Positions 24,290 to 61,750 of a stretch of DNA of 64,000 nucleotides are shown piece after piece (within the stretch, counting starts at the first letter, position 1; each line of letters begins with the position of its first letter). The notes beneath the pieces are model-generated. The model made no database searches, was not told the DNA's origin, and saw only the letters and a list, made by a program, of their open reading frames with translations. The DNA is from Eledone cirrhosa (taxonomy: Eukaryota), in assembly GCA_964016885.1 (NCBI GenBank), contig OZ024766.1:13144001-13208000 (forward strand). Direction: 5' to 3'. The position numbers and the translations under genes were made by a program.

Positions 24290-24362
24290 GATATAAAAGC
24301 ACTCGACAAATATTTGGAGTATATTTACAATATTAAATAAATGGAAAACTATATTTATAAAA

Positions 24363-24442
24363 CCATATTTATTTCATTATATATATTTCGGGGATATCAT
24401 ATTAACAATATGCTATGCCTTCATCAGACAAAATACAATATA
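24363..24442 (-). ncRNA. Type I hammerhead ribozyme motif (family A, antisense copy)
   Basis: Reverse complement of the 27648-27727 motif; TCATCAG at 24421-24427. Confidence 0.7.
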
Positions 24443-25898
24443 AACAGTTTTATAGATAAATATATTCGACATACCGTAATAAACATCAACTTAATTTGGA
24501 GAGGTTTACGCTAGCAGTGAAAATACAGAGAGAAAGAAAGAGAGAAAGAAAAGAGGGAAAAAAGAAAGAAAGAAAGACAGAACGAAGAGAAGGAAGAAAA
24601 AGAAAAAGAAGAAAAAATGCATGGAACAAAATAGAGAGATGGAAAAATAGATAAAGCGAAGAGCTTCATGTAAAGAGACAGAAAGAGATATATATATATA
24701 TAGAGAGAGGAGGAAATAGAGATAGATACATATATATATATATAGAAAATTAGGTAGTGGGAGGTCATTTTGAGTAAGTGTATCAATGATACATTTATTT
24801 ATTTATTTATTTATTTATTTATTTATTTATTTATTTAGCTCAAGTATTAATGTAAGGGAGAAATATAGAGAGATATAGAGAGAGAAAAAATTTAAAAAAT
24901 AGCCAGACATATTCGAGGCGTAGAAAACCCTATGTTTCAATGTATTAGTATTTATAAAACTTACACTATACTGTAAATATCAGTATTCCTGAATGAAACA
25001 AGTATTCACAATGCGTGAAAATTCATTATCTTATGTTTAGTTTTAAAAAATTCATATGTTTATGTGACAGCTACAAACATCAATGTGAATCCAACTGATT
25101 CACTCCGCAAATTCTAAGTTACCGGAAAACATTCTCAATGTGGTATAAAAATTTGGGCATATTATTATTCTTGCGATTACTCTACAAGATTATCTATCAA
25201 GCAGAAATAGAGAGCAGATTTCAATATACTAATCGAAAATATATATTATATTATAAACAAAGATAACAATAATAATAATAATAAGTAAAAATATATAAAA
25301 ATATAGAATAGAAAACTAAAAAGATATTACGAAAAAATGTTGCATATTAAAAATACTACGTATTAAAAAATATTACGTATTAAAAATTTACATATAAAAA
25401 TATTAAAAATATTAAAAATAAAATAAAAATAAAAATATTATAGAATACTACAATACTAAAAGAATAAAGATAAAAAATAAAGATAAAAAAAATAAAAATA
25501 AATAAAAATAAAATAAAATAAAAAAAAATAAAAAAAAAAATTTAAAAAAAAATAAAGATAAAAATAAAAATTAAAATAAAAATAAAAATGAAAATAAAAA
25601 TAAACCACAAAGAACAACCCTTCAAAGTTAATTGACAATATATTGCCAAGTTCATTACAAGACAAAGCCAAAAATTATCTAGCAAAGAATATCGCAAAAA
25701 AAAGATTATGATGTCCAATAATGTCTACATATGTTCCTATATTTAATATAGAAGTTTATCTAGTGTAAGGTTAATTCAAAAAAATTTGGAGCATCGGCTT
25801 TTATGGTAGCTTAATTTTTCATGAGGAATGTTTAGATAAACAAATATTTAGATAAATAAAAAAATAAAAATAAATAAAATAAATTAAACAATAACAAG

Positions 25899-26174
25899 AA
25901 TTCTTTCACAGATCCAAATAAAAAATCTTCAACGGCACTATCAGGGGTACTCTGGCAACTTAAGCTAGATAACGTTAGATATTCGACGGCTTGGAATATA
26001 GCCTCAAGAGGGATTCCTTTTAATTCATCCTCTGAGACATGTGACCTCTGCGCAGAGGAGATATTCTTTATACTAAAATCTAAAAATTCCCTTAACCTAC
26101 GGACAAATTTATTCAGTTGTTGCAAGCATAGATTAAACTCAACGTTTAAATATAAATTTAAATTTAAAATGTAG
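25899..26174 (+). pseudogene. PLE GIY-YIG endonuclease C-terminal fragment (absent from the ORF track: no start codon)
   Basis: Manual translation NSFTDPNKKSSTALSGVLWQLKLDNVRYSTAWNIASRGIPFNSSSETCDLCAEEIFFILKSKNSLNLRTNLFSCCKHRLNSTFK... shows the T-x-L-S..W-x-L-K, W-x-I, CxLC-xx-E, LN and CxH pattern also present in 60924-61175. Confidence 0.85.
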
Positions 26175-27647
26175 TATATTTAGTTTGATTTATATTTATA
26201 TGAGAACTAGCCGATAAATCTTTTGATTCCTAAATCTTTGATTCCCTCTTTTTACTCTTTTTATTGTTTAATTTATTTTATTTATTTTTATTTTTTTATC
26301 TAAATATTTTTTTATCTAAATATTTTTTTATCTAAACATTCCTCATGAAAAATTAAGCTACCCTAAAAGCCGATGCTCCAAATTTTTTTGAATTAACCTT
26401 ACACTAGATAAACTTCTATATTAAATATAGGAACATATGTAGACATTATTGGACATCATAATCTTTTTTTTGCGATATTCTTTGCTAGATGTGATTTGAT
26501 AGATAATTTTTGGCTTTGTCTTGTAATGAACTTGGCAATATATTGTCAATTAACTTTGAAGGGTTGTTCTTTGTGGTTTATTTTTATTTTCATTTTTATT
26601 TTTATTTTAATTTTAATTTTTATCTTTATTCTTTTAGTATTGTAGTATTCTATAATATTTTTATTTTTATTTTATTTTTAATATTTTTAATATTTTTATA
26701 TGTAAATTTTTAATACGTAATATTTTTTAATACGTAGTATTTTTAATATGCAACATTTTTTCGTAATATCTTTTTAGTTTTCTATTCTATATTTTTATAT
26801 ATTTTTACTTATTATTATTATTATTGTTATCTTTGTTTATAATATAATATATATTTTCGATTAGTATATTGAAATCTGCTCTCTATTTCTGCTTGATAGA
26901 TAATCTTGTAGAGTAATCGCAAGAATAATAATATGCTCAAATTTTTATACCACATTGAGAATGTTTTCCGGTAACTTAGAATTTGCGGAGTGAATCAGTT
27001 GGATTCACATTGATGTTTGTAGCTGTCACATAAACATATGAATTTTTTAAAACTAAACATAAGATAATGAATTTTCACGCATTGTGAATACTTGTTTCAT
27101 TCAGGAATACTGATATTTACAGTATAGTGTAAGTTTTATAAATACTAATACATTGAAACATAGGGTTTTCTACGCCTCTAATATGTCTGGCTATTTTTTA
27201 AATTTTTTCTCTCTCTATATCTCTCTATATCTCTCTATATTTCTACCTTATATTAATACTTGAGCTAAATAAATAAATAAATAAATAAATAAATAAATAA
27301 ATGCATCATTGATACACTTACTCAAAATGACCTCCCACTACCTAATTTTCTATATATATATATATGTATCTATCTCTATTTCCTCTCTCTATATATATAT
27401 ATATCTCTTTCTGTCTCTTTACATGAAGCTCTTCGCTTTATCTATTTTTCCATCTCTCTATTTTGTTCCATGCATTTTTTCTTCTTTTTCTTTTTCTTCC
27501 TTCTCTTCGTTCTGTCTTTCTTTCTTTCTTTTTTTTCCCTCTTTTCTTTCTCTCTTTCTCTCTGTATTTTCACTGCTAGCGTAAACCTCTCCAAATTAAG
27601 TTGATGTTTATTACGGTATGTCGAATATATTTATCTATAAAACTGTT

Positions 27648-59452: not shown

Positions 59453-59527
59453 ATATATATATACATATATATATACATACATATATATATATATATATAT
59501 ATATACATACATATATATATATATATA

Positions 59528-60547
59528 CAGGGTGTGGACGATATTTGTTGGCAAGATTACTGTCTAGGAGAAAAATAACACAGTAGTTTTATTTTTTAAG
59601 ATATATCAGTTCCTGTATGAGCAAGGCATGGTCAGCCGACCAGACACTGCCCACAACAGGACAACCTGTCTAACTCATGCTAGCATGGAAGAACGGACGT
59701 AAAACGGTGATGATGATGATGATGATGATGATTTATCAAATTTGGGTCAGTTTGTTTTCATGACTTGTTCTTTCGATCTCACTCGATAGACCCGCCATTG
59801 GCTTTGATGGTAGCCTCAAGGCGGCCTAGGAACTGGCTACAGGCCTTCGTCACTGTACCCCAACTTAGGCCCCTAAAGGCACTTGTGACCCTGGCCTTCA
59901 GATCGTCTTTCGTAATGCAGCAAGATCTGTTGGTGTCTCGTTGCACTGCGCCCCACACAAAGAAGTCGAGAGGATTGCAGTCGGGCGAGCTGGGAGGCCA
60001 GATGTCAGGGGAGGTGTGGTCGACGAAGTTCTCTGACAGCCAGGCTTGGATCTTTCGGCTGGTATGGCAGGGCGCTGAGTCTTGCTGCCACACGTACGGC
60101 CTACCTGCAGCTACCTGGTCGATCCAGGGCTTTACTACCTCTCTCAGATTGCGGATGTAGCCATCGGTGTTCTGCTTGAGACCCTCAGGGAAACAGTGAG
60201 GTGGCATTACGTCACCTTGACTGCTGACGACACCTGAGACCAATGTTGTTGCTGGTAACTTTATCTGCATGACTCTGGGCACGTCTTTGGATGAGACAGC
60301 GAGCCACCTTTTGTTCTGGGAGTTGATCTTCTGGTCCTTATTTGTCCTCCCGGCGCGGACTCCGAGAAGAACTCCGTGTCTCTTCCACAAATTTGGAGGT
60401 TCAAAATTATTCATAATCAATTATTCTGAAAATAAATAATGGAAATATAGTCACTGTTTTTATGAGGACAAGAGTGACAACGGAAGTAAAAAGCATTTGC
60501 ATGAAATTAGCAGTTGAAAATTGTGACCAAATATCTTCCACACCCTG
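59528..60547 (-). mobile_element. DD37D maT-type transposon, copy 2, with a SINE 3' fragment inserted at ~59601-59731
   Basis: Same TIRs and TA flanks; QQD-37 aa-D spacing counted in the 59779..60420 ORF; same internal deletion junction (RTNK|DQKIN) as copy 1. Confidence 0.93.
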
Positions 60548-60743
60548 TATATACATATATATATATACATACATGTATATATATATATATACATATATAT
60601 TTATATACATACATGTATATATATATACATATATATATATATATACATACATGTATATATATATACATATATATATATAGACATACATATATATATATAT
60701 ATACATATATATAGACATACATGTATATATATATACATATATA

Positions 60744-61750
60744 AATAGTTGTAACTGCACCAAACCAGGTACGTGCCCACTGAATAACCAGTGCCTAGCA
60801 CGCAATATTGTCTACCGGTGTACAATAAATTCCGGGACCAACAAATGGTATTACGTCGGATGTACCGCAACTTCTTTCAAGGCTCGCCTATACCAACATC
60901 GATCTTCGATCAGGCACGAGAAAATGCGCTCCGTAACAACCCTCGCCGATAAAGCCTGGCAGCTTCGGAGGAACAATCAAGCGTTCTCCCTTGATTGGCA
61001 AATTATTGCAGCTGCGCCTGCATATCAGCAAAATCATCGATTCTGCAAGTTATGCAATTTAGAGATATACTGCATTTTAACGTCGGTAAACAAACTTTTG
61101 AACAGCAAAATTGAACGTTCTCTATACTGTAACCATCGTTTGAAAACGACTTTTTCTTTTTTTAAATGCATATAATGTTACCTTTTTACACCAACGTTTG
61201 CAAATTTCTGTCTTATATGTTTATACACTAGATATTGCTTTCTATAATAATAGTAGTAAACACTGTTTTTCTGGACCCCTTTAGAAATAACCTGCTACTA
61301 TAATAGCCCTAATAACTTGTCTGTGACATTGTACCACTTTGACCCCTCTAACTAAATTTTGTCCGAACAACACCACTAGAAGAATCTACTTCCCAGCCAA
61401 CCTTAACACGCCTCATTAAGCTAACTGCTGCCAAAACATTCTCTCTTCACAATCTCTACTAGTCTGACTGTCTTAAACCCTAGGACTCCCTCCACCTTAC
61501 TCACTTCCCTCTTCCCCTTCTCTTCCTACCTCCTTCTTTATCTTTTATCTAGTGTATAAAATATTTTCATATCATTCTAATACAAAGGTCTGATGACATG
61601 GTGTGTTGGCTTACAGTGTACTTTCGGTTTTTGATAATATTTGTGTATTATTCAAATACCGAGGTATAGGTAACTCATACACTATAGAAACAATTGTTAC
61701 CTAATAAATTCTATATACCCGCATTTCCATTTCGTAAATTTTTTCTACAT
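60744..61750 (+). mobile_element. Penelope-like element 3' part: Zn-finger + GIY-YIG endonuclease (60744-61175) and 3' UTR/pLTR
   Basis: Open frame [74 protein letters not shown]...CKLCNLE...CNHR (IVY..YVG motif), followed by a hammerhead and AATAAA; flanked by TA-rich tracts. Confidence 0.9.
61586..61702 (+). ncRNA. Type I hammerhead ribozyme motif with ~90-nt stem II (family D)
   Basis: AGGT-CTGATGA(61590)-cATGGTGTGT...ATACACTATa-GAAA(61687)-CAATTG-TT-ACCT; palindromic stem III, 4-bp stem I, GUU triplet. Confidence 0.72.

Follow-up and report, generated by a model that had tools for sequence, protein, structure and literature searches.

The DNA examined here, a stretch of 64,000 nucleotides (nt; positions 13144001-13208000 of contig C27 of a 3.0-Gb animal assembly; hereafter the window), contains eleven type I hammerhead ribozyme motifs that fall into six families, namely A (with subfamilies A1 and A2), B, C, D, E and F. 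Judging from their sequences, these families are almost certainly Penelope-like elements (PLEs) of the Hydra clade, with the motifs located in their pseudo-long terminal repeat (pLTR) ends. Together with this identification, we consider it likely that dual priming on uncut sense RNA gives rise to the insertions: 111 of 113 classifiable head-to-head pairs combine one short with one tailed end.

Satellite DNA makes up about two thirds of the window, and the non-satellite part amounts to 20.5 kb. In this part a type I descriptor recovered nine of the eleven motifs, while 300 local dinucleotide shuffles yielded a mean of 0.10 and a maximum of 2 matches, with none of the 300 reaching nine. The other two motifs, identified by direct reading, carry A.C and C.C as basal pairs of stem II; since these mismatches are also present in the intact young copies L210 and L211, they represent the A1 family form and not decay. 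The C3 residues of the cores lie at 24427(-), 27663(+) (the two motifs missed by the descriptor), 28355(-), 28493(+), 28910(+), 30009(+), 31604(+), 53283(-), 55721(-), 55802(+) and 61590(+). All eleven motifs are thus present where an initial annotation of this DNA had placed them; its division into six families was sound, and the first post-cleavage bases it predicted (27713, 28959, 55852 and 61699) are the correct positions. An Rfam scan of the window returned no hammerhead family among 121 matches (E up to 5). The motifs are distributed over eight insertions, seven of which are head-to-head, and only three carry a complete motif on both arms:

24290-27765: family A (A1) head-to-head insertion; left arm (-) 24290-25899, right arm (+) 25894-27765, about 86-90% to intact copy L211; left-arm tail truncated by a 49-bp satellite, right arm with the short end
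24370-24435 (-): type I hammerhead A1 with a canonical core, predicted to be cut after 24378
25902-26171 (+): GIY-YIG C-terminal part, A1, with CxxC..E..N..CxH; 96% to the 737-amino-acid (aa) open reading frame (ORF) of L211
27655-27720 (+): type I hammerhead A1, predicted cut after 27712
28255-28685: family B head-to-head insertion, short end left, tail right; both arms stop at 28423/28424, the A of an Initiator-like TCA
28293-28363 (-): type I hammerhead B, predicted cut after 28301
28485-28555 (+): type I hammerhead B, predicted cut after 28547
28742-29098: A2 insertion 1; on the left a short coreless inverted arm with the short end, on the right a full arm with the tail
28902-28966 (+): type I hammerhead A2, predicted cut after 28958
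29748-30108: A2 insertion 2; on the left an inverted arm with the tail, on the right a full arm with the short end
30001-30066 (+): type I hammerhead A2, predicted cut after 30058
31553-31729: family E insertion; a 32-bp inverted tail piece and an arm starting from TCA with the short end
31601-31685 (+): type I hammerhead E with a CCGAUGA (U4C) core and, in this copy, a weakened stem I; predicted to be cut after 31682
52109-53603: family F head-to-head insertion; left arm (-) with the short end, right arm (+) 53299-53603 carrying the tail (about 185 nt)
53168-53286 (-): type I hammerhead F with a CCGAUGA (U4C) core and a long stem II, predicted to be cut after 53171
55609-55983: family C head-to-head insertion, short end left, tail right
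55664-55729 (-): type I hammerhead C, predicted cut after 55672
55794-55859 (+): type I hammerhead C, predicted cut after 55851
60744-61747 (+): family D 5'-truncated copy without inverted arm, flanked by (TA)n runs, short end
60744-61175 (+): CxCX5C linker and GIY-YIG endonuclease, D, recognised by motifs; Pfam GIY-YIG E=9e-4, under the curated cut-off
61586-61702 (+): type I hammerhead D with a long stem II whose basal pair is C.A, predicted to be cut after 61698

Relationship to Hydra-clade elements and copy number

Elsewhere in the genome, families A and D possess intact single ORFs of 738 and 778 aa, respectively, that combine reverse transcriptase (RT) and GIY-YIG sequence, and the A1 endonuclease fragment of the window retrieved many 738-aa open frames among 150 scored genomic matches. 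Head-to-tail units measure 4000 bp in A and 3017 bp in D, with the hammerhead 240-320 nt 5' of the ATG; the D copy in the window is 98-99% identical to the 3017-bp tandem units bearing the 778-aa ORF. In family F, RT and endonuclease fragments lie upstream at several copies, and in family B ORF fragments were found at three loci in addition to one partner arm bearing RT. Weighing against the identification, ORF remnants could be linked to C at one locus and to E-type motifs at two loci only. The association of two families with GIY-YIG sequence, noted initially, was confirmed by the endonuclease fragments at 25902-26171 and 60744-61175.

The A, D and F proteins are 41-49% identical to one another. 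YRDD and GIY-YIG-type motifs are present in the A and D ORFs, and CxxC..E..N..CxH as well as a CxCX5C linker in A, D and F, the linker being also readable in B. Family A contains RWR, and D and F contain RWK; DKT takes the place of DKG in A, D and F copy L212, and F copy L214 has DKI. A CCHH motif was absent as judged by eye. Using Pfam, a weak GIY-YIG match was obtained for the D fragment and none for the whole ORFs, and a PDB search with the A ORF gave 0 matches. The closest named protein relative is from Argonauta hians (39%), which would be compatible with an octopod as host. Most classified ends are followed by a TA run (54/61 in A2, 37/39 in F and 50/68 in E), and the general PLE features of a partial-tandem pLTR, an inverted 5'-truncated copy and a one-sided tail are present, which supports the proposed head-to-head insertion into (TA)n.

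The Hydra clade of PLEs with a C-terminal endonuclease (EN+) is characterised by hammerheads and (TA)n targeting and includes the octopus family Hydra-1_Obim (PMC8557442); inverted 5'-truncated copies, one-sided tails and head-to-head palindromes have been described for PLEs (PMC8557442, PMC3846280). The families analysed here resemble this clade in RWK, DKT, CxCX5C, CxxC and CxH around E and N, the single ORF and the (TA)n target, as well as in the hammerhead near the 3' end, the inverted 5'-truncated copy and the tail at one end (PMC8557442). They differ from its description there in having units of 3.0 and 4.0 kb (generally <3 kb in the clade), tails of about 90-185 nt (published tails 30-40 nt), a long stem II and tens of thousands of copies. 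Roughly 30 nt 5' of the D start codon (L106:2480-2503), a branch-point, a pyrimidine tract and a CAG make up a candidate acceptor for a retained intron of the PLE type.

The fold-backs had initially been interpreted as separate short non-autonomous ribozyme retroelements of unusual density, and neither part of this interpretation was supported. An A-clade 3' 23-mer has 47,859 exact matches in the genome (one per 63 kb; control 0), four of them in the window, so that the density of the window is the genome's own with a few-fold local enrichment. Given the published PLE traits and this number of matches for a single clade, no separate non-autonomous elements are needed and the density is ordinary. 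Since Hydra-type ORF sequence lies upstream on the same strand in some copy of every family, the fold-backs are better described as truncated products than as distinct elements, and their arm lengths and junctions differ from copy to copy, as expected of truncated insertion products.

That the short fold-backs are instead self-standing retrozyme-like elements, transcribed as units and moved in trans by PLE proteins, seems very improbable to us. Many copies do carry the ribozyme end only, one junction is common to the two A2 copies of the window, non-LTR retrozymes have been argued to stem from PLE pLTRs (10.64898/2026.07.22.740005) and rotifer pLTRs are able to act in trans (PMC3846280). However, besides the extension of all six families into ORF sequence and the variable junctions and arm lengths, the tandems among the fetched loci are 3-4 kb ORF-bearing units, with no short arrays of ribozyme units, and the two A2 copies have their tails on opposite sides and a variant mosaic that fits local gene conversion. 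A retrozyme-type tandem array of short non-coding units was likewise not found in the window, the search being confined to it and not extended genome-wide. While the type I hammerhead and PLE ancestry are shared with non-LTR retrozymes (PMC7229834; 10.64898/2026.07.22.740005), the latter are short ORF-less tandem repeats, whereas the copies analysed here are truncated ends of ORF-bearing elements.

The two A2 insertions are 1.1 kb apart and share one junction (199 nt, 98%). Their mosaic pattern of variants suggests gene conversion between neighbours; a parent/daughter relationship was considered and rejected on the basis of this pattern, as judged by eye.

Paired ends, arm stops and the route of insertion

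Each family has two discrete 3' ends, located about +45 to +55 and +135 to +165 nt past the predicted cut (+135 and +318 in family F), and tails measure about 90-110 nt (185 nt in F). For the pair census, 27 duplicate loci were dropped. Among the 96 divergent rows, 66 were short+long directly and 19 more after bin widening (7 B and 12 C rows reclassified, their ends lying slightly beyond the original bins), resulting in 85 such pairs next to one short+short, no long+long and 10 unclassifiable rows. A sample chosen regardless of structure gave 17/18 short+long pairs (p=4e-5), and 20 further loci gave 9/9 among the classifiable ones. Of 76 pairs (query-biased sample), 45 (by eye) have a short-ended arm whose 5' reach exceeds that of the tailed arm, and in 11 the tailed arm consists of tail sequence only, without overlap to the short arm. 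Because the short arm reaches further 5', a single tailed cDNA folding back cannot produce such pairs.

Arm stops cluster as well, lying on or below the A of TCA in families B and C. In family B, 36 of 50 arms stop within -126 to -119 (no more than 5 nt from that A), 20 of them exactly on it, and 11 continue. In family C, 43 of 48 arms stop between -116 and -61, and a TATA-like box (TATATAAA) is found 32 nt above the A. An extra G precedes the A of TCA in 12/27 arms, compared to 9/55 at other stops (Fisher p=0.014). Relevant background is the spacing between a TATA box and the transcription start, the extra G that results when a cap is copied, and twin priming as in L1. The sequence TCACT has been termed Initiator-like in a rotifer pLTR (PMC3846280), and the Penelope element of Drosophila has an internal promoter. 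Arm starts did not pile up at the ribozyme cut site, with 2/152 arms within 5 nt of it in a biased sample and 3/100 within +1 to +10 in an unselected one, which agrees with the insertion of uncut RNA in vitro (PMC11167929). Loop-less palindromic centres (ATAT or ATATAT) occur in 8 of the 14 B centres listed, and junction overlaps of 1-6 nt are frequent. A peak of F arms at -143 (4/30) was rejected as a transcription start because another repeat inserts there, which weighs against a start-site stop in this family.

For an Anolis PLE, both target strands were extended in vitro from two internal sites, and ribozyme mutants still inserted (PMC11167929). This element, Poseidon, resembles those described here in its two internal start sites bounding the tail, its AT-rich target and the uncut RNA substrate; it belongs to a different clade, and the available part of that report mentions neither strict end coupling nor Initiator run-off. 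We propose that the element's RT-endonuclease would cut the (TA)n target and that its two cut ends would each serve as primer for DNA synthesis along uncut sense RNA, one from the short and the other from the long start site. Both cDNAs would run toward the RNA 5' end, stopping early or at the transcription start (the A of TCA), and would then be joined via short homology. Tiny ribozyme-only fold-backs would result if priming took place in the transcript's first repeat, and long ORF-bearing copies if it took place in the second. The ribozyme may cut only as a dimer formed via its 8-nt palindrome, or when helped by the element's protein; its role would probably be the trimming of tandem read-through RNA, with cutting unneeded for insertion. 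A stricter version, in which dual priming by a protein dimer at two fixed sites of a capped uncut transcript is obligate and the ribozyme toggles between U4 and a working but slower C4 form, is tentative and somewhat doubtful. If true, every mirror-image insertion would have exactly one tail, the shortest ones would end on the transcription start, and a C4 core would have been amplified to >1,000 copies.

An alternative route, on which the inverted arm is made by self-priming as one cDNA (or an antisense template) folds back and the endonuclease trims one end, appears improbable in light of the arm geometry. Self-priming or an antisense template has been proposed (Arkhipova et al. 2013, PMC3846280) and the tail has been viewed as a product of endonuclease resolution (PMC8557442), so that a single tail per pair is predicted here too; the frequent 1-6 nt overlaps at junctions and the 19 of 76 pairs in which the tailed arm is longer (by eye) are compatible with it. 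The 45 pairs with a further-reaching short arm and the 11 tailed arms lacking overlap are not readily explained in this way, arms stop at a sense-strand TCA, and the loop-less centres suit the annealing of two cDNA ends.

Several observations also weigh against dual priming with run-off at the transcription start. Two pairs are short+short (L103 and L329), and the in vitro start sites were equal for the top and bottom strand (PMC11167929), meaning that strict coupling is not shown biochemically. The extra-G signal was not repeated in 20 further loci (0/4), the E peak is weak (11/43), and arm starts of an unselected A-clade sample, mapped all-against-all, were widely spread without a sharp peak, although this sample comprises many subfamilies and the method is noisy.

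Hammerheads, inverted truncated copies, tails and (TA)n targeting were already known in PLEs, and finding ribozyme-bearing elements is in itself ordinary; the fixed U4C core in two families and the strict pairing of short and tailed ends are modest additions. Both the route of inverted insertion in PLEs and the role of the hammerhead are treated as open questions (PMC8557442, PMC11167929). As young families with intact ORFs are present together with tens of thousands of insertions, self-priming and dual priming should be separable by counting.

Hammerhead structure and the U4C core

The nine canonical cores form three helices around CUGANGA, GAAA and UH with an open helix I, and stem III is a self-complementary 8-mer that exists in several versions. 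The palindromic stem III suits the dimer fold proposed for PLE hammerheads, and the initial description as PLE-kind type I motifs with palindromic mini stem III was borne out. Structures were drawn by hand on chosen representatives, and the selection patterns fixed some core letters. In the A/B/C group (12 representatives) 96% of cells were paired and 7 pairs showed two-sided change, while in the E group (17 representatives) 88% were paired and 13 pairs showed two-sided change; the covariation score of both groups was matched by 0/500 shuffles, and slid controls were 25-63% paired. This covariation favours structural selection on the stems, as had been suggested; since rows were hand-picked with fixed core letters, it supports the stems and not core invariance. 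Counting against it, related sequences can beat shuffles in such a test and the structures were drawn on pattern-picked rows, and minimum-energy folds of monomers and homodimers were mostly without an active hammerhead; the proposed dimer fold appeared in none of the calculations.

Type I topology, a long helix II, a palindromic helix III and predicted dimer action are shared with the PLE hammerheads of PMC4209133, as are many variable families per genome and opposite-strand pairs 100-700 bp apart. In contrast to these, G10.1-C11.1 is not kept in A2, B, C and D (A-U, G.U or C.A), and the core variant is U4C here and U3-A8 there. A C.pyrimidine mismatch at the fourth stem II position is kept across A, B and C (alignment columns 19/48), and all listed copies of family D have C.A as the basal stem II pair (window position 61597).

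Variation in the cores at 31596 and 53168 had been seen initially; it was not recognised that both read CCGAUGA and share one U4C change, the form in which families E and F have been amplified. U4C is found in 31/32 F arms and C4 in 27/28 E arms, and CCGA as single-copy decay was rejected in view of this amplification. The U4C pattern has 1,142 genomic matches compared to 4 for the control, with 1,365 matches carrying U4 in sister subfamilies. The first 100 of 1,622 E matches comprised 64 CCGA, 23 CTGA and 13 CCAA (by eye). With a relaxed core, position 4 was C in 45 of the first 100 of 1,183 matches, and any change at positions 3, 5, 8 and 12 was seen in 4, 8, 7 and 6 of them, respectively (by eye). 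Position 4 is thus the sole tested core position (3, 4, 5, 8 and 12) with a frequent variant. A tree of 92 rows (7 rows dropped as chance or unalignable matches; positions 4-5 masked) needs 11 label changes, at least five of them forced, and places a C4 subclade within a U4 subfamily (97/97). Since tree support is rough (42/89 branches open, bootstrap not settled) and some changes are single-copy CpG changes, our claim is restricted to repeated toggling between U4 and C4.

We classify E and F, from their sequences, as variant-core hammerheads with predicted cleavage, and lean towards regarding the U4C core as a slower but working form kept under selection. A viroid hammerhead with the same change has considerably lower activity in vitro, which is sufficient in vivo (PMC3088659, citing Ambros and Flores 1998); here, animal retrotransposon families with >1,000 matches have been amplified in this form. 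All cores in File S2 of PMC8557442 are U4, unlike the C4 of E and F, and no report of U4C in a PLE was found in the literature searched, which included two supplements and few subscription papers. For U4C alone, it could also be argued that the change kills the ribozyme and hitch-hikes because cleavage is dispensable for transposition, which we regard as rather unlikely. The insertion of ribozyme mutants in vitro (PMC11167929), the marked reduction of in vitro activity by U4C (PMC3088659), the success of Naiad PLEs without canonical hammerheads (PMC8557442) and an additional mismatch near the stem II base of family F are in line with such a loss. Against it stand the restriction of a high-frequency variant to position 4 among the core positions tested, the tolerance of U4C by the viroid in vivo (PMC3088659), and C4 lineages of different stems (E, a subclade of E's sister, G and F) that retain the other core letters, stem I and the palindromic stem III in two versions. 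The U4 and C4 sister subfamilies with near-identical stems offer a natural pair for asking whether cleavage rate matters to a retroelement. Descriptors requiring CUGA overlook E- and F-type families.

Other features of the window

The left arm of the F insertion is split by a 0.9-kb insert (52174-53071) with a 26-nt direct repeat at 52148-52173 and 53072-53097; the insert resembles a LINE 3' fragment by eye and has 67-80% matches at other loci. An (ATT)n run 3' of the F hammerhead (53131-53163) is often broken by another short repeat, as at F loci L059, L063, L065, L066 and L071. Following the C tail, an inverted repeat of the tail's own end surrounds a TA run (55937-56082). Between (TA)n runs lies a 585-bp element (30660-31244) with 27-nt direct repeats at its ends, which among the fetched loci is present only in duplicated copies of this region; it was considered as a third endonuclease remnant and rejected, having 0 matches to three PLE proteins. 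A short element with a long internal hairpin (28040-28240) is often found beside (TA)n elsewhere (73 match lines).

The window insertions recur together with their flanks at C27:14.17-14.22 Mb, C27:14.65-14.68 Mb and C23:29.59 Mb, which represent segmental duplications. The satellite blocks (1-24289 and 32801-52023) comprise 34-bp arrays in both orientations, a 21-bp array, 10.7 kb of (ACC)n, the 49-bp array (336 copies) that cuts the A1 tail, and an 80-bp array ending in a hairpin (49288-49385). Related repeats (87-95%) with inverted ends, DNA-transposon-like by eye, occupy 56886-57799 and 59518-60558, and LINE-like coding fragments are located near 54390-55590, 57980-59400 and 62000-64000.

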